NCBI GenBank assembly: GCA_043751475.1
Contig: JAYUZV010000011.1
Coordinates: 1-53,702 of the forward strand
Direction: 5' to 3'
Length of the DNA stretch: 53,702 nucleotides
Origin: Chlamydiia bacterium
GTDB taxonomy: Bacteria; Chlamydiota; Chlamydiia; Chlamydiales; JAYUZV01
Under the pieces are notes generated by a model. That model was given only the letters and a program-made list of their open reading frames with translations. It searched no databases and was not told where the DNA came from. Positions 2,305-40,706 of the stretch are shown here, one piece after another. A program made the translations under genes and the position numbers. Each line of letters starts with the position of its first letter. The first letter of the stretch is position 1.

Positions 2305-3798
2305 ATGTTCTGTCATGTGCAATCGGCAGCTTTTGTCGGAATTGAGGCGCTTGCTGTCCATGTCGAGGCCGACGTGCGGCGGTCAGAAAAGTTACAGCTG
2401 ATTATTATTGGCCTACCGGACAGTGCCGTGCGCGAATCGAAGGACCGTGTCCTCTCTGCTCTGCAAAATAGCGGCATGGGCCTCTCAAATGTACAAGCGA
2501 CAATTAACTTAGCTCCCGGAGATCTGCGGAAAGAGGGGTCACTCTATGACTTGCCTATCGCGCTAGCACTCCTTGTCGCTAATGGAAAATTGAAGAGCAT
2601 CGACGACTACCTCTGCATCGGTGAACTTTCTCTATCAGGCCACCTCCGTCCCTTGCGCGGAGGTCTTGCTGTGGCTCTGCTTGCCAAACGCCTCGGCAAA
2701 AAAGGGGTTATTATGCCAAAAGAAGCAGCCGCAGCTGCCGCAATTGTTCCGGGCATTGCACTTTTTGGGGTAAGCTCTCTAACAGAAGCTGTCCATTTCC
2801 TGAACGGCCAGAGGCAAATTTCGCCGGAAAAAGAGATCTCCGTCTTAGAAAAGGAAGGGAAACCCGAGGTCAATTTTGCCGATGTAAAGGGACAGGCGCA
2901 TGTGAAGCGCGCCCTTGAAATTGCGGCAGCTGGAGGCCATAATGTTCTGCTTTATGGGCCACCTGGCTCTGGCAAAAGTCTACTTGCCAAGGCGCTGTGC
3001 GGAATACTTCCCGAAATGACCCTCGAGGAGGCCCTTGAAATTAGCCAGATCCACTCCTTTTCAAAAGGTGAGTCAGGTGGCGGCAACATTGTTAATCAGC
3101 GCCCATTTAGATCGCCCCACCACAGCACCTCCTTTGTCGGTTTAATCGGCGGTGGGAGCCACCCAAAGCCTGGAGAGATCACCCTGGCACATAGAGGTGT
3201 CTTATTCCTGGACGAGCTCCCCGAATTTTCGCGCGTCACGCTTGAGTCGCTCCGCCAGCCTCTGGAGGATGGACGCGTCTCAATTGTGCGCGCTGCGGGC
3301 AAGCTATCCTTTCCGTGCCGCGCCCTCCTAATTGCAGCCATGAACCCCTGCCCTTGTGGATATCTTGGCCATCCGACAAAAGCGTGTAGCGACACGGCGT
3401 TGCAAACAGCGCGCTACCGCAGCAAAATTTCGGGCCCCATGCTGGACAGATTTGACATGCATATCGAGGTGCCAGCACAAAAGATGGAAAAGTTGCTAGC
3501 AGATGAGCAGTCAGAGTGTAGCAGCACTATAAGGCAGCGTGTATCAAAGGCACGCAAGGTGCAGCTAGCCCGTAGCGGCAAGAGCAATAGCGAATTGCAG
3601 CCAGCGGCGCTGAAAGAGGTGTGCGCCATCACGCGATCTAGCAAAGAGCTACTAGAGCAAGCAAGCGCACAGATGAACCTCTCGGCGCGCGCCATTCACC
3701 GCATAATCAAGGTGGGTAGAACCATTGCCGACCTTGAGGGTAGCAAGGATATCACGGATGAGCACCTGATGGAGGCCCTCACCTACCGCCAGCTCTAA
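2305..3798 (+). CDS. comM: YifB/ComM-family Mg-chelatase-like AAA+ ATPase
   Basis: N-terminal Lon-protease-like region (SAAFVGIEA...DLPIALALL), Walker A GPPGSGKS, Walker B VLFLDELPEF, C-terminal ChlI-like region; 497 aa is the typical length. Confidence 0.9.
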   Translation: MFCHVQSAAFVGIEALAVHVEADVRRSEKLQLIIIGLPDSAVRESKDRVLSALQNSGMGLSNVQATINLAPGDLRKEGSLYDLPIALALLVANGKLKSIDDYLCIGELSLSGHLRPLRGGLAVALLAKRLGKKGVIMPKEAAAAAAIVPGIALFGVSSLTEAVHFLNGQRQISPEKEISVLEKEGKPEVNFADVKGQAHVKRALEIAAAGGHNVLLYGPPGSGKSLLAKALCGILPEMTLEEALEISQIHSFSKGESGGGNIVNQRPFRSPHHSTSFVGLIGGGSHPKPGEITLAHRGVLFLDELPEFSRVTLESLRQPLEDGRVSIVRAAGKLSFPCRALLIAAMNPCPCGYLGHPTKACSDTALQTARYRSKISGPMLDRFDMHIEVPAQKMEKLLADEQSECSSTIRQRVSKARKVQLARSGKSNSELQPAALKEVCAITRSSKELLEQASAQMNLSARAIHRIIKVGRTIADLEGSKDITDEHLMEALTYRQL

Positions 3799-9702: not shown

Positions 9703-10704
9703 ATGGAAAAATCTCATTTTGATGAACATCAGATCCACGATACAGAAACCATGAAGCAATTTGTCACTGCCTCTGGAAAGTGGGAGATCAGTGCATCGGA
9801 TTTGGCTCACCTCAGCTATAAAGCAGCCGAGCGTATGGCCCAGCACAAAGAGCATATCGACGGTGGCTACAAAGATTATGCCAACCACGCCTTTAACATT
9901 TTTATCCAGATCTATAAATCCCCCTCTGCCACCTACGGCGAAACTTGGCTGAAAAAAATTCAAGATATCTGGCACAGCATTGCAAACCAAACTGAACTAG
10001 ATGAAGATACGCTTGAAGATGCCTTTTATACAAAAGCAAAAACAACTCTTGCCGAATATCCGGCGGCCTGGGCATCAATACTTTACGACTACACACGCTA
10101 TGTCCAGCGCACATCATTTGATAGGAAGTATGACGATCTCTTCATGAGTCTTAATAGAGCGATGTTTGGTAAACTCGTTCTTATAGAGGATATCTACACA
10201 AGACCTGAGCAGCGCGATGTGGAGACCTTTAGAAAGTTTATCCTCTGCGCGCAGGACTCCCCTTGGAGCGCTTATAGCAAGCAAATTGCTGAAATTACCC
10301 TGTTAACAGCTGGCCGAATTGCCACCCACCGCGAGCATATTAATGGCGTCTATACCAATTATATTGACCATGCGGCAGGTATTTTTAGAGCCCTCAATCA
10401 GACCGATAGCAATAAGCATGCTAGATCTTGGTTAAAAGAGATTGCAAGTGCCTATAAGGAGTTTGATGTCTCAGAAGAGATAACAAGAGGAAGTCCGATC
10501 GATTTTCACACGGCAAATAGCCACCTATTTAACAAATATCCAGAAGTTTGGGTGCAAATTGCCTATGACGTGCTGAAATATAACCAGTATGTCGCGGGTC
10601 AAAATGATGAGAGTAAAAAGCTAATGAACACTTTTGACAAGCTGCGCGGCCACATCACCTGGGACTTTAAAGACACCGAACACTTGCGCTTCGAAGCCGC
10701 TTAA
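9703..10704 (+). CDS. Hypothetical protein made of two tandem repeats of about 160 aa
   Basis: Internal duplication: AERMAQHKEHIDGGYKDYANHAFNIF...WLKKI...EYPAAWASILYDYTRY matches GRIATHREHINGVYTNYIDHAAGIF...WLKEI...KYPEVWVQIAYDVLKY at an offset of 160-161 residues. Confidence 0.6.
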   Translation: MEKSHFDEHQIHDTETMKQFVTASGKWEISASDLAHLSYKAAERMAQHKEHIDGGYKDYANHAFNIFIQIYKSPSATYGETWLKKIQDIWHSIANQTELDEDTLEDAFYTKAKTTLAEYPAAWASILYDYTRYVQRTSFDRKYDDLFMSLNRAMFGKLVLIEDIYTRPEQRDVETFRKFILCAQDSPWSAYSKQIAEITLLTAGRIATHREHINGVYTNYIDHAAGIFRALNQTDSNKHARSWLKEIASAYKEFDVSEEITRGSPIDFHTANSHLFNKYPEVWVQIAYDVLKYNQYVAGQNDESKKLMNTFDKLRGHITWDFKDTEHLRFEAA

Positions 10705-15546: not shown

Positions 15547-15915
15547 AGCACCGATCAGCACGCTAGCAAGCAAGAGAGCAAGAAAGAAAAATTGGCAGGA
15601 TACAGGATGGGCAGGATAAGGCGAGGATAAAGAAAAGGGATAAGTAAGAAGGCAAGGTTTTAATTAATAAAGGGTTAAAGCAGCTACAGAGAGGAGCGCC
15701 CCTCCGGAGGAGCGGGATTTTGCACTTAGCAAAATCCGAGGAACAAATGAAAAAAACGTGTTTTTTCATTTATCCTCCCCCTTATCCCTTATCTTTTCTT
15801 ATCCTTTCTTATCCTGTTATCCGTGCGGATTCTCTTTCTTTCTTACCCCTTTCCCTTATCCTCGGCTGATCCTGCCCATCCTCTATCCGTGCAAACCCTC
15901 TTTCTTGCTTCCCCA
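15547..15915 (-). repeat. Palindromic intergenic element R2 (variant-B outer arms, variant-A-like inner right arm, core in - orientation)
   Basis: Left arm gcaagaaagaaaaattggcaggatacaggatgggcaggataaggcgaggataaag (15578..15632) pairs imperfectly with 15854..15908. The core is at 15684..15780 on the minus strand. Hairpin B is at 15715..15737 (ggattttgc / gcaaaatcc). Confidence 0.85.
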
Positions 15916-16003
15916 CCCACTTATTGTTATAAAACTTGACGGGAGTTAATAGTTTTTATTAGGATGAGCTAATTGATAGTAATTATTAATTGGACGCTTG
16001 TTT

Positions 16004-17464
16004 ATGAAATTATTAAGGCCGATTGCCCTAGCCCTCTCACTCTCTCTTTGCGCGCTTCACGCAGAAAATAGCGCAGATGTTGCCGCACTTAAATCACTCT
16101 CAAATGGCTTTAGAGAAGTCGCAAAAAAGGCAACGCCAGCTGTTGTCTTTTTAGAGGTCCAAGTCGCGGGTGCTAGTGAGGAGATGGGCAGTGCAGGGGC
16201 AACCCCTTTTGAAGATGACGCCCTTGAAAACTTCTTTGGCCACTCATTTAAGCGAGGCAAGCCAAGCTACCAGACTCAATCTCAAGGTTCTGGGTTTTTT
16301 GTCTCGAGCGATGGTTACATTTTGACAAACAACCACGTTGTGGCTAATGCCTCTAAAATTATTGTCCGCACAACACTTAACCGCGACTATGTCGCAAGCG
16401 TTATTGGAACAGATAAATCTAGCGATATGGCACTACTAAAAATTGAGGGTAAAAATTTCCCCTATCTCGAATTTGCAAAGCCGGATACGTTAGAGGTTGG
16501 TGAGTGGGCCATTGCTATTGGCAGCCCCTTCGCCCTTTCAAACACATTCACAGTAGGTGTTGTGAGCGCAAAAGGACGCAGCACCTTGCGCATTGCCGAC
16601 TACGAAGATTTTGTCCAGACAGATGCGGCAATTAACCCCGGCAATTCGGGCGGTCCTTTAATTAATCTCGATGGAAAAATCATTGGAATTAACACGGCAA
16701 TTGCTTCAAAATCTGGCGGCTACAACGGAATTGGCTTTGCAATCCCCGTTAATTTAGCAACATTTGTGATGAATCAACTGAAAACAAATGGCAAGGTCTC
16801 TCGCGGCTTTTTAGGTGTTGGACTACGCGAAATCGATGCTGAAATGGCGTCTAAATTTAAGCTGCAAATGGTTGAGGGAGCCCTTATTTCTGAGGTAGAA
16901 ACAGGCTCCCCTGCCGCTACTGCTGGATTAAAACTCGGCGATATTATCCTCGAATTTAACGATAAGCCGGTGACAGATTACGGAAAATTGCGCAATGAGA
17001 TCTCGATGACCCCTCCTGGACAGAGTGTCGCAATAAAGGTACTACGTGCAGATGGCGCTACTATCACATTAAACCCGATTCTTGGCTCTGCCGCAGGACA
17101 CGCCAGCAGCGCAGCGGGTATGGTTAAAAAATTAGGTTTTACTGTTAAAGATATTTCTAAAGCCTTTAGAAGCAAAATAGAAGCGCAAATCGGTGAGAGC
17201 GCCGGAAGTTTGCAGGGCTGCTATGTCTCCTCGCTTCTTGTCGGGACTCATGCCCAGCACAGAGGTGTCCATGTCGGTATGGTCATTGATGAGGTCAATC
17301 GCACGCCGGTTACAAATGCCGCCGAATTCAATAAAGCCGTTGCCGCCTACCTAGAAGATGTCAAACTCTCGGCTGGCAAGAAAAAACCGGCTCTACTCTT
17401 GCGCGCTGTTTCGATTAAGTCCGGCAAAGCACTCTCCTCCTACATCACCATCCCCACTCCGTAG
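16004..17464 (+). CDS. htrA: HtrA/DegP periplasmic serine protease with two PDZ domains
   Basis: Signal peptide MKLLRPIALALSLSLCALHA. Catalytic triad contexts NNHVV, DMALLKI and GNSGGPL. A C-terminal PDZ-like region is present. The ORF track starts at TTG 15998; ATG 16004 is preferred. Confidence 0.9.
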   Translation: MKLLRPIALALSLSLCALHAENSADVAALKSLSNGFREVAKKATPAVVFLEVQVAGASEEMGSAGATPFEDDALENFFGHSFKRGKPSYQTQSQGSGFFVSSDGYILTNNHVVANASKIIVRTTLNRDYVASVIGTDKSSDMALLKIEGKNFPYLEFAKPDTLEVGEWAIAIGSPFALSNTFTVGVVSAKGRSTLRIADYEDFVQTDAAINPGNSGGPLINLDGKIIGINTAIASKSGGYNGIGFAIPVNLATFVMNQLKTNGKVSRGFLGVGLREIDAEMASKFKLQMVEGALISEVETGSPAATAGLKLGDIILEFNDKPVTDYGKLRNEISMTPPGQSVAIKVLRADGATITLNPILGSAAGHASSAAGMVKKLGFTVKDISKAFRSKIEAQIGESAGSLQGCYVSSLLVGTHAQHRGVHVGMVIDEVNRTPVTNAAEFNKAVAAYLEDVKLSAGKKKPALLLRAVSIKSGKALSSYITIPTP

Positions 17465-18855: not shown

Positions 18856-18885
18856 CTGACGCAATAAAAATAAAAGGTGTATAAT
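18856..18885 (+). promoter_or_regulatory. Candidate sigma-70-type promoter for the giant ORF
   Basis: ctgacg (18856..18861), an 18-nt spacer, then tg-tataat with TATAAT at 18880..18885, about 50 nt upstream of the ATG at 18936. Identified by pattern only. Confidence 0.3.
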
Positions 18886-18935
18886 TTAACAAGGGCCTCG
18901 CTTTACTTACAATATTTAAATAAAAACAACTTACT

Positions 18936-21900
18936 ATGACAAACACTGTATTACATAGAAATCCTCATATTACCCAGGTCGGGTTTGAGACCTCGGAAGA
19001 GCTTGCCTTATGGGGAGCTCCTAAAGTAGAGATTATCAATGAGGGGAACAAAGAGAATACAAGCGAATTAAGCTGCGCTTTCGAGAGAAAAAACCCCGCA
19101 GCAAAAGCAATTGCAGGCAGCGCGACCCCAGAGAGCAAGAGTGTTACTACAGTTCAGAGCGACCAGGTACGGGCCCATATCTTACACCACCCGAGCCTCG
19201 CAAAGCTCAGACCGTCCAACAGATCGACCTCCCTAGAGTCGCCTACAATCCGCTTTTTTATTCGGCTCTGGAACTATTTTGCAGACTTTCTGAGTCTGAT
19301 TTTCTTGCCTGTGCGCGCCCAGCTACATGGCTCTGCGATAGTATATGCCGCGGCATTTGGCAGCAGTCGCAATAAAAAAGCACCCCCAATTGACCACCGT
19401 CTTTTTAACTACGTCTGTCTAAATAAGTCGCGCAGCAGAAATTTAGCCGATATCTGCGACCGCAACTTCGACCACCTCCCCGAGTCAGCCCTCCTCTACT
19501 ACATGCGCGATTTTTGCAGGGAGCAGGCCGACATTCCAAGGAGTTTTGTAGATGAGTTGTCAGACTCAGCAAAATGGTCGGCTAAGCTTGAAGAAGCCGC
19601 TGCACTTAGAAGCCAATCTTTACGCTTCTTGAGCTCAAAACATGCCGAGTGCGATGAGATCATCGAAGAAGTTGCCACCGAAATGGAAGCAAAAATTGCA
19701 GCACTTAAACCAAATGAGTCAATCACCGTTCCTTGCCAATTAGCAACCCCTCCGGCTATGCCGAGCCTCGGGGTGCTACTTCCTGGCAGACTCATGGATG
19801 CTGCCCAGGGGTGGTTTGATGGGAACGAGAGCTACCTAGCAGGTATGGCTAATTATATCCCCTCTGCCAAGACAAATTTCCTGATACGCGTCCAAATGGT
19901 CGGTGAGGACAGTTACACCATCACCCTTACCTCGCGCGATGGACTTGTTCATGAAACCGAGAAGGTCTCTCTCATTCCCGCGGGGAAAACAAAGCTGGTT
20001 GCAAGCCTACCATTTAAAGCAGTTTCATTAAAAAAGAGAGAATTTGGTGACAAGGCGTGGTTGCGTGGCCTATGCCTTCTTCGCACGCCCCACGTAGCGC
20101 AAAGCACGGATAGACATGATGGCTCAGTTATAGAAAGCTCTCCTGTAGCGCGTACGGGGAATGAGCTGGCGGAGCTATTTGAACCCTTTATCCACAAGCA
20201 AGGGCCCCCAGATAACCCGAAGCATACAACTGCTGTTTTTACTGCCAATGCCATTAACAACTTAATGCCCCTCATGAAAGAGGATAGTGCGATCCATCCA
20301 AGTGATGAGAAGGTGGCTGCACGCAGAAAACTTACACTTAAAGTAAAGACCCTTTTCGGTTTTTTTGGCAGCGTGGCAAATACCCTCATGCTAGACCCAA
20401 AAAGTGCCGAAATGGAGCGCACCTACTTAGAGGAGGGTCTCCTTTTAATTCAGCAAGATGCCGCTATTCTCGCCTCACAGGGGTGGCTTGACAAACAAGA
20501 GGTGCTAGATCTTAACCACGAATTTAGGCGCATTGAAAAGGCGCTTGAAAGAGCATCTGGAAAAGCACAGACTGTTACCCCTCCTGGCCGGGTAAAAGAC
20601 TCCCCTCCAAACGCAGTCCTTACCCAACCAAACCCACCCTCACCCGCAATAGATATCGATACAAAATCGACAAAGGTCGCCTATCCCACAAAGAAAACCC
20701 CCACACCATGCGAAATCGGTTCGGAAATAAGGCCTCGTATTGCCGGCTACACCTTTGCTGAGAAAATCGACGGATCAAACATCGCAGATCAGATCGATTA
20801 CGCCATTCAAATCTTGGATAGACTTACCGCTGCAACTGAAGCAAAAGATCTTCTAACCGTTCAGCAGCTCGCCATCGATTTTGCCTTTCTCCTGCCCATA
20901 CCAAGCATCTATGAGTTAACGGGTTATAAATTAGAAGAAACAACTATGCCTTGGAGATGCCTTGGTAAACCGCGGGGTGATTTAGCAGATCCGATGGCGG
21001 ATGCGAGCCGTAAACTCTCCCGTCTTGCCAGCGCACTTGCAAAGGCTGCAAGCAGTGAAAAGACCCTCTCACCCGACCGTCTCATCGCAATGGGACGTCT
21101 TGGTTTAATGATTCGCTACCTCGGCTTCATGAATGCCGAGCGCTCTAACCTGACTGGCCATACTGCAATGGGAGATACGACAATTGACACGGTTCTACAG
21201 CTCTTGCAGCCGCTGCACGGCGAGCGCAGCTTCTACATTCCAAGATCTGCAAAAGAGAAGGCAGCTCTTGACCAGTTGAAAGCTAGTAATGCCGATCTAA
21301 AAGCTCACTTTTCCACCTTGCTCGAGGGCGATTACTTATTCGGCCATATCAAACGCCGCGCTGTCCGTGGCGGCAGCGATATTGAATTGACAAAACTGGC
21401 GCTCTCTCACCTTAAAAAGCAGATCAAAGACGATTCAAATAACCCTCTACACCCTGTTCTAGACAACCTCGCCAGTCCAAACCCGGGGGATATACAAAGC
21501 GACACGATTACAGATGCTCAGATTACTACAACAGCGCGTCTTATCAGCTCCAATTTGATGAAGGAGCTCACAAGAGCCCAAGATCAGGAGCCGTTCAGAA
21601 CTCAGGAGCAGATTAAACTTATCGGCCTGCGCGACTACGCTTATAGCCGCATGCGGATCAAAAGAAAAGATGGAACATTTGGTAATGACAATACACAAAG
21701 TCTGCGCAAACGATTCAGAAAGATTAACGGCAATATTGTCGATGACAATCTAAATCCTGTTACCTACAACAAAAAGCTTTATATTGTTATCTCAGAGCAA
21801 ATCTCGAATGAGAAGTCGCAAACAACCTCTGAAACAGGCTGGTTCTTCTTTGACTACATTGGCCGTGAGCTCTCAGCGGATCAAGGAATGCTTGTAAATG

Positions 21901-24900
21901 CTCAGGCAGGGGTGGGCAAAGTTCTTCTGAACGGCAACCCATTGCTCTCGACAGCTACAGACGCTGCACTGATCTCCCATTTGGAAGGCGGAGGTGTTCT
22001 TCAGGTGGGTGTGCAAGCGGTCGATGCTGTCAAAAAAATGGCTGGCACAGAAAATCCGGAAGGATCCCTTAACCAGCAGACTGCCGATGAAAACCAGTTG
22101 ACCCACTGGATAAACTTCTTTCACGACTTTCAAGAGTTAATACCCGACTCCTTCCCCTTTGCTAGTGGATTCGATCTCTCCTCTGAGCTAAAGCGCGAGA
22201 AGCAGATGAAGTGGCTTGCCAGATGGAGGCGCTCCCCTAAAAATGAGCTCTTCACGGCCCTTTATTTCCGTGGAGAGGTTTCTAGAACAGGCAAACCTGA
22301 AACGCTCTACAGGGAAGGCAGCTATCAAAGAGCCAGACGCATGGGGCAGAGCTACATGCAAAATGGCACCGTCACGGTAAAGGAGCAGCCAAAATATCTA
22401 GGTACCGGAATTACAGAACAGGGACTTAAGGATGACCCGCGCTATGTTATTAACCGCTTTTTCCACGTCTGGAGGATCATCAATGGAGAGGATTCGGAAG
22501 GGATCGCCCAAGATGCCAAAACTAAAGCACTGACATTGCCAGACGGCCTCAGAATCGAGCAGTGCGAGCCGCTATTAAAGGCGCTCCACAACCCAACCGC
22601 TATCTGGGAGACAATGGCACTTGTGAGAGGCAGCGATCTGCTGAAATATCCAGAGGTGCGCACACTTCTTCTCGGCCTATTTACAGAGCCAAAAACTTTT
22701 GAAAGCACCGTTATGAAGGGTGGAGAGCGCTTCATTAACGACTTAGTAGAATGGCTAAGCGAAAACTATAAACAGCAGAAAAAATTGGGGATAGAAAACT
22801 CATTTGAACTGCTCTTCTTTGTCTCGATTGCGCAGACTCTACGGCTGATGATTGCCGAAGATGCCATCACATTGACACCTGAATTAAAAAAGGCTGCTTT
22901 AGAGCGCCTACCTGATTTTGAGAAGGAACTAAGGGCTCTTAGTGAAGAGTCTTTTGGCAAACCCGAATATGACAACTACCGCAGACAAATTATTACACAC
23001 CACCTCTTTGCCCTCACTGAAAAAGAGAAGTTAAAGCCAGAGCAGCTCCATGAAATTATCGTCAGACGCTGTCTTTTAAACTGGATGAAGCAGCCCCCTC
23101 TATCTGAGGTCGATCCAATGATAGAAGATAGAATTAACCACAACATCCTGAGGTGGAAGGGAACTCTTGCGGCGTTTTATGAGGTTGATGATTCCACTCG
23201 CATCCAACATACAATGGACGAGATTTTCCATAGAAAAACACCAGAGAAGATCCCCGACTTGACTTGGACGCTAAAATTCCCTATGGCTTCTAACGACCAC
23301 TTCGAAATTAATCTTTTAACAGGCGACACTCGACTTAAAAGCTCGGGTCAACAGCTCACTTCTATATCGGCAAAGGGAGAGAATAAGTATAAAGAGGCTT
23401 TTCCAAAACTTGCAGCTCTAACCGGCGGAAGCGTACAGGGGACAATTTATGCTCACCCTAGAAGCGTCATCTTCGAATTTACCGAAGAGTCCTCGGGCAC
23501 AAACATCCGTATTGAAGAGAGGGATGATGGAAATGTCTATATTTACAGATCTGTCGAGGGAAGATGGTATCAGTGGCAAAAAACAGACGACCTTATCGCT
23601 AAAGGCAGCACCCCTCACCCACTCATGGCTCAACTAGGAAGGATAGCCCCTCCTGGATTACCTATCGGAGCCCTAAGCAGAGCGCGCCCGCAGCTGCCTC
23701 CGGCGATTTTCGGCGATTTTCAGTGTTTCGACTCGGAAAACCCCACCATGATGGCCACCTTTGATGAGAACGGCAAGCCCCTATTTAAAGTGGAGTTTAC
23801 CTACGACAGCCGTGATGCGACTGGCGATTACATGAAAGTAAAGCGAGTCCACGACCTGCGCCAAAAGAGAAGAAAAGGCTGGACAGCCCAGTTCTTTAAC
23901 GACCCCAAAGAACTGCCTATTTTACAAAGACTGAGCGGGTTTGAAGACTCCAGCACCACGATGCTCTGGACAAAAAATGGGGTGCTTCAAGAGATTGAAT
24001 TGATACGTTTTGGCCTCTCTTTTGTCAAAGATGAAAAGGGCGATTTTCTATCGAGTAACCACCGCGGATACCGCCTAGAATTGAACCCCTCATCGCACGA
24101 GAATAAAGGGGTAGAACAAGCAATTGTCTTAGTGGGAATAAGCCCGCCTCACAAGAAAAAAATCCTCATGCCACAAATCGGCAACGAGGCCTACGGCAGA
24201 AAAGCTGTGGCTCTTTTCGGCGTGACAGATCCAAATGCTCAGGCGCTGCTTTCCATGCTGCCTGTTGTTTCAGATATCATGGCAAATCCGAGCGCGCTTT
24301 TTACATCGCGCCTTCCAACGCCTCTTAAACGGCTGCTCAGATATATGATGACAGGAGAGAACCCCTCTTTCCTAGACCTAGCTCCAAGAAGTGGTGGCAA
24401 TATTTGGATTCACGATAAAGCAGGACTAACACGCGGCTATTGGGAGTATGACCTCGGCGCTGATGGGAATCTGCAGTGTCAAGATGAAGCAAAACATGAG
24501 GCGCTGCTTGACCAGCTCGCCTATACAACGCAAAACAGTGGCCACGGCCGCAGGGAAGCGCTTATCCAAATTGAGCCACTGCTAACCGAACTAAATAACC
24601 TCTCTAACTCTCTTTTTGAGAGATATTCAGATCAAGAGGTCAGCAATGTTATCCGCAGATTATGCGGAATTGGCAAATCAGAATCGCTGCTAGGTCTTTC
24701 CGACAGCCTAAAACTACTGACTAGACTGATCCTTCATATGAGTGCCAATGAGACAGGTGTGCTTCTGCGCGTATTGCTGACACTGCGCAAAAAAATCTCA
24801 ACAAGCAGCAAACGCCTTTTAGGGACAACAGGTCAGCCTATTCTGGACGAATTTATTACCCTTATTTACAACGGCTACCTCTCGCATGGCAAACACATGC

Positions 24901-27900
24901 ATAAGGTCGCAAGAATCTCGCCAAAAGAGCTCGAACTTCTAGGCCCTGCAACCCTTTCGGCACAGACGCTAGGCCTTACCCTTCCCGGGCGCAAAGGCAA
25001 GGTCGCTGTTACCCATCAACCTTTTGGGCCGAAAGAGTACACAATTACAGCTCTTGCGCCCACTATCGCCCAAAATAGAGCCAATAGAGCGCATTCTATT
25101 GAAGAGTCATGGATACCGACAGAAAACGTCTATAACCGGGGAAAAAAAGAGGTAAAATCACGCACATTCAGTGCAACGCGTATTAATTTAAAAGAATTTC
25201 ACCGCGACTTTACCGAGATCTATAAAAGAATCAATGAGAACGACCCCTTAAGCAGCGACTTTAGGGATCTAAAAATACTTTTTGCAACAACGCCGGGTGA
25301 TCCACACAACAAGGATGGCAACAATCTGGTTAATTATCTCCGGGTTGTGATGGAAATGCGCGAAGCTAAAGCTGTACGCGCTTTAGGAGAGCAAGGGAAT
25401 GATGTAGAGGCGCTGCCACCGCTACCGCTACTGGCTACCTTAAAATCTTCGGACGATGTTGACTCTGAATTATTTGTCGAAAGTTCTGAAACCGTTCTAA
25501 CGGAAAACAGAGAACGTATTCACCATTTTCTCGAACAGCTCGATCAAATCGTCCTCAACTACCACCTGAAAAGAAAGCCCCTTGAGCACCTAGCAGAAGG
25601 GGCTGAAGGGTATGACCCGAATGAGATGGCCCTAGCCCTTGCCAGAGTCCGGCAGCTCGAGAGAGCGCTAGGAGCGCACCACCCAACCACCGAGCAAGAG
25701 TTAGAGGAGTTTGTGCAGATCTTCTCCGACCTCTCGACTACCACAACAGATGCTGGACTCACTATTATTGATGTGGGCGTCTCTCCTTTCTTAAATAATA
25801 CCCAAGGTCAAGATGAGATTGACTCCTATTTCCAAGAGGTTATACCCCAAGATTTAACAGCAAAACTCAGCCAGTTAACCACAAGACTTGAAGCGATAAG
25901 AAATAACGACAAAAAAGAGCGCTGCGTCCGCAGTAAGATGGAAAAAATTCAGCGGGAGATTACCGTTGCAACAGGGCAGGCCGCAAAAAACAGGCTCCAT
26001 AAAATTGACCAGAAAAAGCTCTACTCACTGACCCACCTAGTAATGGAAAAAACGGATGGGTATAGAGCTGAGGTTGCAAGACTTAAAAAAGAGATTCTCG
26101 GTATTCTGCACTCCAACGGAGACCCCACCCAAGCGCTGATACAGGCGGCTGGTTATGGCAACCACATTCAGTGGGAAGAGCTACTTGCTGCTTTTGCACG
26201 CGATGATTTAAAAGCACTTGAGTCACGCCTTCCTCCCCACACCACTCTAAAAACAATTAAAGACCTGGTGATTAACTACTATGCCTCAAGCGTTGAGGCG
26301 AGTAATGGCGCGAAGATCCTGGACGAGCTTGCCCGGATGCAAAAAGATAAGCTATCCGACTGTCCCCTAACGGGTGAGAACATCTATAAACTCTGTACAG
26401 CACGGCGCTACTTTGATGTTAAGGCCGAGCCCTCACTGCTAGCTATTGAAGGAAAGATGGGCTTTAAATTGCGCAAGCAGCAGCTCGAGATCCTGAATAA
26501 AGGAAATAATTGCCTGATTCAAGCGGCAACAGGTGCTGGTAAAACAACCCTAACTCCAGTAATTGCCCAGCGAAAAGCAACCGGCAAAAACTTTGTTGTG
26601 ATGGCCTATCTCAGCCCGCTGCTAGAAGAGGCCAATACCCACCTTAATGCAATTCTCGGGGACTTTTTAAAACGCGATGTCTCCAAAATTATCCACACTG
26701 GAAAGGATAAGGTGCGCTTTACCGCAATTGATGCAAACCAGCCTGATAAGGGCGAGGTTGAGCAATCGATGTTTAAACTTCACTACAAGCGCATGCTCGA
26801 TATTATGGCAGGAAAAGGAGCTGTTGCAACCGATAGAAAATCCTTTCCTCTGCTTGCACAGCGTCTTATTAAACTTCTTAACGAGTGCTCAATAGCTGTG
26901 CTCGAGAACCACGTAACTCTCGATCAGTTCCAGTACGAGCACCTCTACTACCTTTCAAAAATCTTATTACTCCTATCAAAACGCAGTACAACAACCATCG
27001 ACGAGCATGACGCCTTTCTCGACCCAACTCAGGTCCTCCACCTCCGCTCTGGCAAGGTCGTTTCTGCCCCTACGTTTATGTGCGAGTCTACGCTAGAGCT
27101 TTTCGATATGGCACGTGATGAGATAGAATTGCGTATTGATGAGAACGTTCAGGGTGATATACCAGAAGAGGTGCGCCTCGCCCTTTTGCGCACCGTCGCT
27201 GAAAAGAGCTCTCCACTCTTTTTAGACAGATTAGCCGGCTCTGCAAATAACCCCACCTTGACACCCCAAGTACTCGCTAATTTTAATATTCCAATTTTCA
27301 TCTCAACAGATGAGATCACCACCTATCTGCGCGGTGATGAGGGCTGGAAAGATGTCGAAACCAAGCTGCACGCTAAACAGGCAGAGATCGAGGCTAAAGC
27401 AAATGTTGAAAGAGAGGGTGAACAGGCGGGTTCTGCACAAGATGTTGAGGCACATTTCCTCGATTGGCTCGACCGTCTGGCCTTTGCTAAAGACCAAATT
27501 ACCCTCTATCTTCCCCTTGTTTTTGGCCACACAAAAAATGTAAAGTTTGCGCGCTCGGAAGATGGAATCCATACCATTCCCACAATATCGACAGACAGAC
27601 CGCGCGAGGGAGCGCAATTTGACAATATCTGTGAAAAGATGCCCTTTACAGCTACCGACTGGTGGCAGAGCGGCGTAACCGCTGAATATATGCAAGCATG
27701 GGCTAATGATCTGCACGAAAAAGCCAAGCGAGAGGCCGCTGAAATGGCTGAATGCGGTGATGAGGCTAGTGACCTAGAGACAACGCCATCTGGCAGTGCC
27801 TTTAAGAAAAAATTCCCGCAACTATCGCTTTATACCTACACCGGCGAACTTCTAGCCAAACTGGTTAATGGTGATATTAATACCTACGTCCAGATGATGC

Positions 27901-39050: not shown

Positions 39051-39137
39051 TTCAAATCCTGCGATCCTTGCAGAGCTTGAGAATTATCAGGGCTGTCGGC
39101 TATTCTTAAGGCTTATATCTAATTGGAGAAAAGCTCT

Positions 39138-40706
39138 GTGAACTTCCCCCCCCCGCACTACCATACTGAAGATGAATTTCAACAGCGCTCCCGCAAATTA
39201 GAGGAGATCATCGCCCTCGGAATTGATCCCTACCCAGCGAGATGCGCCCCAACAGATTCGGCAAAGGCGGTTCAAACCACATATGCGGGCAATGCAATTG
39301 GCGATAGCGAAGCTGCTGGCAGCGGCAAAACACCAAGAGCCATCCTTGCCGGCCGTATGGTTCTATTCCGCGAAATGGGCAAAAATGCTTTTGCGCAAAT
39401 TGAGGACTCCTCTGGAATCATTCAGCTGATGTTTAACCGCGATATTACGCAAGTTAAAGGACTTAAATTAGATAGCGACATTACCCCAATTAAATTTATC
39501 GAAAAATATATCCATCTGGGCGATTTTATCTCCGTTGAAGGACACCTCTTCCGCACACAAAAAGGCGAGATCACCCTCTTTGTGCACACTTGTACGCTCG
39601 CGTGCAAAGCACTTCTTCCACTGCCCGATAAACATAAAGGGCTGACAGACCCTGAACTGCGCCACCGCAAGCGCTGGCTCGATCTAATTGCTAATAAAGA
39701 TGTGCGCGAAACCTTTATTTTGCGCAGCCGTATTGTCCGCATGATCCGCAACTACTTCGATGAACTCAAATTTATGGAAGTCGAAACACCGATACTCCAG
39801 AACAGTTACGGAGGCGCTGCAGCCAAGCCATTTACAACCAAGCTGCTCGCAAAAGATCAGCCTCTTTTTATGCGTATCGCCCTTGAAATTTCATTAAAAA
39901 AGATTGTGATTGGCGGAATTGACCGAATTTTTGAAATTGGGAAGAACTTCCGCAACGAAGGTCTTGATAGAACCCATAACCCAGAATTTACCATGTTAGA
40001 AGCGTACGGCGCTTATATGGATTACAATGAGATGATGGTGGTGACCGAGAAGTTATTTGAAAAAATTGCCCTGGAACTTTTTGGTAAAACAACCATTGAA
40101 GTGCATGGTGATGGCGATGAGATTATCGAACTTTCGCTAAAAGCACCATGGAAACGCCTGTCGATGAAGGGTGCCATTTTGGAATATGGAAAAATTGATG
40201 TCGATGTTAAGAGCACCGAGCAGCTGCGTGACATTTTACGCAATCTCGGCTCACTGCCTCCTGCCAAGTATGAAAAAGCAGCGCGCGGATCCCTCATTGC
40301 ACTGCTATTTGAAGAGACGGCCGAAAAACATCTGATTCAGCCCCACCACATCATCGACCACCCAATTGAGACAACGCCTCTGTGCAAACTGCATAGCGAC
40401 CCTAAATTGCGCGAGGAGCGCTTTGTTGAGCGATTTGAAACCTTTATTTTGGGACGCGAATTTTGCAACGCCTACACCGAGCTTAACGACCCGGTTCTGC
40501 AGCGCGAACTCTTAATCGACCAGGCGCAAAAGCGCCTCTCTGGCGATGAAGAAGCTGTGCCGCTGGATGAGGAGTTTATCGAAGCGATCTGTCAAGGACT
40601 TCCCCCTTGCGGTGGCCTTGGGGTTGGCATCGACCGGCTGGTGATGCTTTTTGCCAACCGCCGCAACATCGCCGATGTGATCTTCTTCCCCTTCATGGCT
40701 CATTAG
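39138..40706 (+). CDS. lysS: Lysyl-tRNA synthetase, class II
   Basis: FRNEG, NPEFTMLE and GGLGVGIDRLVM class II motifs, plus an N-terminal OB anticodon-binding region. The ORF is open from TTG 39123. GTG 39138 has GGAG 9 nt upstream and is preferred. Confidence 0.9.
   Translation: MNFPPPHYHTEDEFQQRSRKLEEIIALGIDPYPARCAPTDSAKAVQTTYAGNAIGDSEAAGSGKTPRAILAGRMVLFREMGKNAFAQIEDSSGIIQLMFNRDITQVKGLKLDSDITPIKFIEKYIHLGDFISVEGHLFRTQKGEITLFVHTCTLACKALLPLPDKHKGLTDPELRHRKRWLDLIANKDVRETFILRSRIVRMIRNYFDELKFMEVETPILQNSYGGAAAKPFTTKLLAKDQPLFMRIALEISLKKIVIGGIDRIFEIGKNFRNEGLDRTHNPEFTMLEAYGAYMDYNEMMVVTEKLFEKIALELFGKTTIEVHGDGDEIIELSLKAPWKRLSMKGAILEYGKIDVDVKSTEQLRDILRNLGSLPPAKYEKAARGSLIALLFEETAEKHLIQPHHIIDHPIETTPLCKLHSDPKLREERFVERFETFILGREFCNAYTELNDPVLQRELLIDQAQKRLSGDEEAVPLDEEFIEAICQGLPPCGGLGVGIDRLVMLFANRRNIADVIFFPFMAH

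Follow-up and report, generated by a model that had tools for sequence, protein, structure and literature searches.

Introduction

The domain DUF3638 (PF12340) is described in the literature as a eukaryotic domain of unknown function that is widespread in the proteins of eukaryotes; it is lineage-specific or expanded in fungi, it occurs in Tetrahymena and in a large gene family of a microsporidian, and in Aspergillus it is found together with DUF3645 (PF12359). The eukaryotic and viral proteins that contain DUF3638 (and DUF3645) are about 3,000 amino acids (aa) long, come from fungi, ciliates, microsporidia and giant viruses of the Klosneuvirus type, and often bear in UniProt the automatically assigned name 'ubiquitinyl hydrolase 1'. 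They are among the largest uncharacterised proteins of these groups. The literature that we searched held no published function, structure or activity for DUF3638 proteins, and the DUF3638 papers that we found did not mention chlamydiae. Here we describe a giant protein of this kind, encoded in a 53,702-nucleotide (nt) stretch of DNA from a Chlamydiia bacterium (GenBank assembly GCA_043751475.1, contig JAYUZV010000011.1, positions 1 to 53,702), which in its full length will be called the window. The source organism is an uncultured member of Chlamydiota, known from a metagenome. A single open reading frame (ORF; 18936-30767, + strand) codes for a presumably cytoplasmic product of 3,943 aa and spans an ATPase module. 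This module is a divergent member of the DUF3638 family, and we consider it very probable that it is a superfamily 2 (SF2) ATPase of that family with an intact active site.

The window protein shares with the DUF3638 proteins of eukaryotes and viruses its giant size, the position of the module about two thirds along the chain, and the fold of the whole module. It differs from them in its Pfam score, which is below the family cut-off, in its bacterial host, in the failure to detect PF12359 in the bacterial members tested, and in its length of 3,943 aa with apparently lineage-specific insertions. Two other described systems are relevant for the comparison, SecA and the DEAD-box and RIG-I-like helicases. 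SecA and RIG-I each have an inserted domain, PPXD and Hel2i respectively, which is moved by the cycle of the two lobes and clamps the substrate.

Results

Assignment of the module to the DUF3638 family

The best Pfam match of the window protein was PF12340, whose profile has 225 positions and a curated gathering score of 31 bits. The match scored 24.3 bits with the whole protein, 26.1 bits with a 901-aa segment and 27.3 bits with a 600-aa chunk (E 2e-5 to 3e-6), and covered profile positions 4-103. The initial annotation, made from the sequence alone, had proposed a likeness to the DUF3638/DUF3645 module and had set against it the possibility that ordinary helicases of superfamily 1 or SF2 would be the best matches. 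In the Pfam search such families came after PF12340 on the same stretch, DEAD with 21.6-23.3 bits and ResIII with 16-22.4 bits, both below their own cut-offs. No NCBIfam model matched the giant protein.

Residues 2450-3350 (901 aa) were then used as phmmer query against 1.84 billion representative proteins. Of the 189 proteins that it returned at E<=1e-3, 106 were at or below E 1e-30, and the best had E 1.2e-91 and 35% identity, so that the likeness goes far past what chance would give. The relatives were almost all 2.6-3.5 kaa (thousand amino acids) long, and matched the query in three stretches, lobe 1, a middle block and lobe 2. The modules of eight of nine relatives passed the PF12340 cut-off (38-87 bits) and the ninth scored 30.0 bits; coverage of the profile in the relatives reached positions 8-204, well past the P-loop. 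In three relatives analysed at full length PF12340 was the sole Pfam domain. Precomputed annotation lists PF12340 on the relatives P0002, P0111, P0132, P0137 and P0142, and NCBI already lists a further one, P0125 (MEM7174972.1), under the name 'DUF3638 domain-containing protein [Chlamydiota bacterium]'. Chlamydial relatives are thus flagged in public annotation.

The subgroup to which the window protein belongs is the least similar to the Pfam model, with 24-41 bits as compared to 85 bits for other bacterial subgroups. When the profile of the window subgroup was aligned by hhalign with that of an 85-bit subgroup, the two matched over the whole module (P=100%, E 8e-69, 662 columns). Because eight of the nine relatives score above the cut-off, the subgroups are linked by their profiles and the predicted fold is shared (see below), the window module is assigned, by this indirect route, to DUF3638. 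The second half of the proposed likeness fared differently: PF12359 had no match in the window, in the modules of nine relatives, in three full-length relatives or, even at E<=10, in isolated lobe-2 pieces. The proposed resemblance is therefore borne out for DUF3638, whereas DUF3645 went undetected.

Motifs and conservation of the active site

The module as modelled comprises residues 2482-3300 (26379-28835) and consists, according to the AlphaFold2 (AF2) model and the Foldseek and phmmer comparisons, of a RecA-like lobe 1, an inserted domain and a RecA-like lobe 2; the giant ORF and all features within it lie on the + strand. All nine sequence blocks that the initial annotation had singled out were located at the residues it named (nt 26430-28751). 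They include PSLLAIEGKMGFKLRKQQLEIL (residues 2499-2520, nt 26430-26495), the LIQAATGAGKTT block (residues 2527-2575), TTTIDEHDAFLD (residues 2685-2696), TSGVSASIG (residues 3083-3091), LILIDGSGATRG (residues 3154-3165), HSQSRGADERL (residues 3235-3245), ALLITNG (residues 3251-3257) and LLQNEGRLR (residues 3264-3272, nt 28725-28751).

Conservation was assessed in two ways, by counting residues among those of 150 listed relatives (189 were found at E<=1e-3) that cover the given position, and in a full-length alignment of 62 giants, i.e. the window protein and 61 relatives. Ahead of the P-loop there is a Q-motif-like glutamine, Q2516 (26481-26483), present in 133/133 relatives and throughout the 62-protein alignment. 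Motif I (Walker A) is GAGKT at residues 2533-2537 (26532-26546), inside the PF12340 match; G2535 and K2536 are both kept in 133/133 relatives, and K2536 had been correctly named as the Walker A lysine. Motif II (Walker B), DEHD at residues 2689-2692 (27000-27011), stands at the end of model strand E203-208, with D2689 and E2690 kept in 140/140 relatives and D2692 in 139/140. The check for a loss of Walker A or B residues in orthologues, which had been proposed as evidence against catalysis, thus revealed none.

Between motifs II and III there is an inserted domain of about 360-370 aa (residues ~2700-3062, 27033-28121; model residues ~210-580), which appears to be mostly helical from the secondary structure of the model and is delimited also by the conservation profile and by phmmer. 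It holds the block Y.RS.DG..TIP...P.E..F (residues ~2851-2900), which is among the most conserved of the family. Motif III follows as SAS at residues 3087-3089 (28194-28202). This is the sole oddity among the motifs, the relatives having S/T-A-T, with threonine in 142/142 of them at the position of S3089, and SAS in the window is apparently a lineage-specific conservative change of an otherwise invariant motif. In lobe 2 the block LILIDGSGATRG (28395-28430) forms the first core strand (model strand E672-677) and contains D3158, kept in 142/142 relatives. The motif V-like SRGAD is at residues 3238-3242 (28647-28661), where G3240 is found in 140/140, R3239 in 121/140 and D3242 in 128/140 relatives. 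Motif VI, QNEGRLR, occupies residues 3266-3272 (28731-28751), and 140/140 relatives keep Q3266, R3270 and R3272; its arginines are the likely arginine fingers.

The canonical order of motifs I, II, III, V and VI is thus preserved, and together with the two RecA-like lobes of the AF2 model they place the module in SF2. The module is the best conserved part of the giant protein. The invariant columns of the 62-protein alignment are almost all inside it, and include Q2516, G2535, K2536, D2689, E2690, Y2797, D3158, G3240, Q3266, R3270 and R3272. As far as can be judged from the sequences, the active site of the module is intact and its catalytic residues are strictly conserved.

Predicted structure and relation to SecA

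The AF2 model of residues 2482-3300 (m9a5ac9a76f74, built with a 20-sequence alignment) had a mean predicted local distance difference test (pLDDT) score of 80.1 and a predicted template modelling (pTM) score of 0.76, and agrees with the earlier description of the module as helicase-like and two-lobed. In the model lobe 1 is RecA-like and carries the P-loop and the DEHD strand; after the insert the chain re-enters lobe 1 at SAS. Lobe 2, also RecA-like, contains LILID, SRGAD and QNEGRLR. In a Foldseek search of BFVD the top seven matches were proteins of giant viruses that bear the name 'DUF3638 domain-containing protein' or 'ubiquitinyl hydrolase 1', from Fadolivirus, Hyperionvirus, Hokovirus (four) and Harvfovirus, and the eighth was an uncharacterised protein of a Megaviridae environmental sample. 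The matches extended over 810-930 columns with E 2.5e-16 to 8e-11 and query-normalised template modelling (TM) scores of 0.43-0.56, query and targets being predicted models alike. Because the top viral structure matches are proteins with these names, the entire module, together with its insert, is taken to have the DUF3638 fold in the prediction.

No solved structure was matched at E<1e-3, and when the PDB was searched by sequence, neither the window segment nor the family profile, P0137 or P0119 had a significant match. The best solved structures in Foldseek were those of SecA (1tf2, 3jv2 and 6itc; TM 0.31-0.39, ~850 columns, E 1.5e-3, probability 1.0), followed by RIG-I/MDA5/LGP2. SecA was the best PDB match and the only one whose alignment took in each of the module's three parts, and this raises the question whether the module is a SecA-like 'DEAD motor', which pushes or unfolds polypeptides and is derived from SecA or shares a specific ancestor with it; DUF3638 would then be of bacterial origin. 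Like the module, SecA (NBD1-PPXD-NBD2) has two RecA-like lobes. The Escherichia coli enzyme has its motifs in the same order (GEGKT105, DEVDSIL209, GMTGT389, GRGTDI508 and LRGRSGR571), and its PPXD, like the insert of the module, separates motif II from motif III; a distant subgroup of the family with high PF12340 scores spells the motifs similarly (for example ADEVDSILD, FGGFTGT and HRIGTDI). However, the Foldseek E value is marginal, the window protein has no SecA Pfam match, and the insert is mainly helical and, with ~370 aa, twice as long as the ~160-180-aa alpha/beta PPXD. Moreover, the module is part of a giant protein, has no SecYEG-related context and shows no significant sequence or profile similarity to SecA. 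In hhalign the family profiles matched E. coli SecA with a probability of 0.4-4%, at the P-loop only, and PriA, an unrelated SF2 protein used as control, scored as well. The comparison with authentic E. coli SecA, in which the control was no worse, led us to reject homology at the sequence level, and we find a specific common ancestry improbable. As judged from topology, SecA is an analogue of the DUF3638 module, to which a relationship is not demonstrated.

Distribution and origin

The homologue set is large in bacteria, with 189 divergent clusters and with paralogues in some genomes. When one genome of each prokaryotic species was scanned, six loci came up, each of them in metagenome-assembled genomes (MAGs) of the PVC (Planctomycetes, Verrucomicrobia and Chlamydiae) group, five labelled Chlamydiota and one Verrucomicrobiota: two copies in Parachlamydia sp. 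BC.030, and one each in Parachlamydiales, Chlamydiae, uncultured Chlamydiales and the Verrucomicrobiota-labelled MAG. Another relative, P0111, is from a gammaproteobacterial MAG. For five relatives the neighbouring genes are clearly those of bacteria (rnc; nuoG/rnhB/smc/Bac_export_2; glgP/pgm; Fic/Wza; Mur ligase/proC/ruvX). The gene of P0142 adjoins a Bac_export_2 (SctU/FlhB-type) gene for type III export at 15590-16639 of its locus (L011), and has a phage-integrase gene upstream; the genome encoding it, represented by a 2.26-Mb contig, also encodes a second paralogue, P0143. Comparison of the window neighbours with six of the relatives' loci (L003-L008) by tblastn detected no conserved synteny, and no match was obtained when viral contigs were scanned with the distant high-PF12340 subgroup.

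The initial annotation had read the module as eukaryote-like, which in its full form means a recent import of the gene from a eukaryotic host such as an amoeba or fungus, encoding a secreted effector that mimics host proteins. The literature does have DUF3638 widespread in eukaryotes, and with DUF3645 in fungi, giant viruses of protists carry it, and one of the relatives, P0142, has the type III export gene as its neighbour. But the GC (guanine plus cytosine) content of the giant gene, 0.47-0.48, is equal to that of the flanking housekeeping genes, and so does not point to a recent import. Against this origin speak also the paralogues and the bacterial clusters, 189 in number and divergent. 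The window subgroup is, in addition, the one least like the Pfam model, which argues for long residence in bacteria. That the genome acquired the module recently from a eukaryote appears improbable, and we regard the host-mimic scenario as a whole as quite unlikely. Of the eukaryote-like description there remains that the family is shared with fungi, protists and giant viruses; it is, however, not peculiar to eukaryotes, given the large bacterial family and the bacterial gene contexts. DUF3638 is an old, multi-copy lineage in Chlamydiota. The sharing of the module by domains of life and giant viruses fits exchange among organisms living inside protists, and gene exchange among the inhabitants of protist cells is likely.

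Comparison with helicases

One could also suppose that the module is an ordinary bacterial nucleic-acid helicase of SF2 (DEAD-box or ResIII) embedded in a large protein, and that its likeness to DUF3638 is that of any P-loop protein. DEAD and ResIII are, as described above, the next Pfam matches on the same stretch, a search of the PDB with the family profile yielded weak matches to SF2 proteins only (XPB with E 0.012, then RadD, MDA5 and RecQ), and single lobes superpose on the lobes of DEAD-box proteins (UAP56, eIF4A and DbpA; target-normalised TM ~0.45, Foldseek probability ~1.0). The module has in common with DEAD-box and RIG-I-like helicases the Q-motif-like glutamine, GxGKT, DExD, S-A-T/S, xRGxD and QxxGRxR, and with RIG-I-like proteins also the presence of an inserted helical domain. 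Against this, DUF3638 outranks DEAD and ResIII in the window and in all relatives, with up to 87 bits and positions 8-204 of 225 of the profile. The fold of the whole module matches DUF3638 proteins with E 1e-16, as opposed to E>1e-3 for every solved helicase. An insert of ~370 aa between motifs II and III is foreign to DEAD-box and ResIII helicases, its position is unlike that of Hel2i, and motifs Ia, Ib and IV, which bind nucleic acid, are unrecognisable in the module. An ordinary helicase is thus very unlikely.

That the module is a pseudo-ATPase, without catalysis and retained for its scaffold role, for which the SAS in place of the family's SAT at motif III and the sub-threshold Pfam score of the window could be cited, is highly improbable, since all residues for ATP binding and hydrolysis are intact and invariant across 133-142 relatives, and the change from T to S is conservative.

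Other parts of the giant protein

The full-length alignment of the giant ORF shows an architecture that is common to the 2.6-3.5-kaa relatives: a conserved region at the N-terminus is followed by the ATPase module, and an acidic linker then leads to a C-terminal region. The second most conserved region, residues 1190-1760 (22503-24215), is predicted from its AF2 model (pLDDT 77.9) to consist of a domain of helical repeats and, after it, one that is rich in beta structure. In region-wise phmmer searches residues ~1100-1800 had 49 relatives at E<1e-3, and the region after the module, residues 3300-3560, had 23. The best viral Foldseek match of the model of residues 1190-1760 was weak (E 2.8e-3), to the N-terminal chunk of a Harvfovirus 'ubiquitinyl hydrolase 1'; the next chunk of the same protein matches the ATPase module. 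This comparison of predicted models hints that the DUF3638 giants share more than the module.

The acidic, low-complexity (EA)n linker at residues ~3448-3480 is encoded by a tandem repeat of GCAGAG (x13) at 29277-29374. Because an acidic stretch of the E-V-E or E-x-E kind occupies the equivalent place in the relatives, the linker belongs to the conserved features of the family and is not a local expansion. Residues ~900-1100, 3001-3050, 3551-3600 and 3701-3750 (~21633-22235, 27936-28085, 29586-29735 and 30036-30185, respectively) were aligned in less than ~20% of the 61 relatives. In the alignment these stretches appear to be insertions specific to the window protein, and as such they help to account for its 3,943 aa as compared to the usual 2,700-3,100.

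When the giant protein was searched against Pfam in nine overlapping chunks, no domain came up outside the module. The name 'ubiquitinyl hydrolase 1' of the viral homologues suggested a protease or deubiquitinase domain as a candidate; it is not supported for the window protein, which has no Pfam match of this kind, and among the invariant columns of the 62-protein alignment there is neither a Cys nor a His. The distant high-PF12340 subgroup (alignment A6, with P0137, P0119, P0145 and others) has a conserved Cys-rich motif, C.LGC..DNCPNY, in the N-terminal half and TIHEAHG near the C-terminus, both of which are absent from the window protein; they may be signs that this subgroup has an additional domain for metal binding or catalysis.

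The gene and its genomic surroundings

Upstream of the giant ORF are nrdA, nrdB, genes for an M16 (PreP-like) peptidase, htrA and an EamA transporter gene. Downstream and convergent with it are an M50 peptidase gene, sucD and sucC, then ftsY, and farther on the genes of PriA and LysS. With nrdAB, the M16 peptidase, htrA, sucDC and ftsY the neighbourhood is of the Chlamydia type, and its gene order resembles that of the CT819-CT828 region of Chlamydia. An identical giant protein is encoded by six contigs from metagenomes, among them ENA ERZ27313706 and Logan SRR14689457.

Two promoter-like sites, each with 10/12 matches to the consensus, which is their only basis, lie at 18856-18913 (+ strand), inside the 95-bp gap before the start codon of the giant ORF. 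Because these are the two strongest sigma-70-like matches in the 14-kb region and are directly upstream of the ORF, they suggest that the giant gene may have its own promoter.

The LysS of the window (39123-40706) has no relative with more than 67% identity, and its sole match with an organism name is from Rhabdochlamydiaceae (63%). The source is accordingly taken to be an uncultured chlamydia, for which the amoeba association named in the initial annotation is an assumption. It is the plain 527-aa form; many of its closest relatives are ~760 aa long, with a fused B3_4 (PF03483) domain. Two other window ORFs, 138-2243 (701 aa) and 9703-10704 (333 aa), had no NCBIfam and no Pfam match, respectively.

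Discussion

How would such a module work? The motif set and order are those of SF2 NTPases, and for this reason ATP is expected to be bound in the cleft between the two lobes. K2536 and T2537 would grip the phosphates, D2689 and E2690 would hold the Mg2+ ion and the attacking water, and the adenine would be read by Q2516. R3270 and R3272 of lobe 2 could act as arginine fingers, which sense the gamma-phosphate. Opening and closing of the lobes, driven by hydrolysis, would move the inserted domain, which could serve as a clamp on a macromolecular substrate, be it nucleic acid or polypeptide. If the inserted domain acts as a clamp in this way, the ATPase would be the motor or switch of the giant scaffold protein. 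We hold this generic motor mechanism, built on the predicted model, with moderate confidence. The assignment of the module as a DUF3638-family SF2 ATPase, taken jointly with the mechanism, appears probable to us. That the giant protein is secreted by the type III system and acts on the host, and not in the bacterial cytoplasm, is possible rather than probable.

It must be noted that several points weigh against this interpretation. The window protein itself is below the gathering score of PF12340, and only half of the profile is matched directly. PF12359, the usual partner domain of DUF3638, was undetected in the window and in the relatives tested. No solved structure is matched significantly by sequence, and for this reason the mechanistic part rests on the predicted model and on generic knowledge of SF2, and the literature searched contained no biochemical data for any DUF3638 protein. 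As to secretion, the giant-protein sequence has no signal-peptide-like or transmembrane segment and carries no other sign of export, type III signals being unreadable from sequence here.

A bolder scenario would make DUF3638 a sister lineage of the SecA motors, in which ATP-driven polypeptide clamps with a domain inserted between motifs II and III, of bacterial (probably Chlamydiota or other intracellular) origin and serving as engines of proteins of ~3,000 aa, were passed to giant viruses, fungi and protists within host cells that they shared. We think this unlikely; if it were true, the 'eukaryotic' Pfam family would be a bacterial export. On the preferred assignment to a DUF3638-family SF2 ATPase, the domain is common to many intracellular bacteria, giant viruses and protists or fungi, and the feature found in the window is not unprecedented.

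What this work adds is a large and deeply diverged set of bacterial homologues, mostly chlamydial, with a perfectly conserved catalytic site. An SF2 motor with a SecA-like insertion topology offers a testable biochemical hypothesis for DUF3638, and the module is a further candidate among the genes exchanged by chlamydiae, giant viruses and protists. For the biology of chlamydiae it means a family of 3-4-kaa proteins, often present in several copies, in which the ATPase is the sole recognisable enzyme; it is plausible that these chlamydial DUF3638 giants are effectors.

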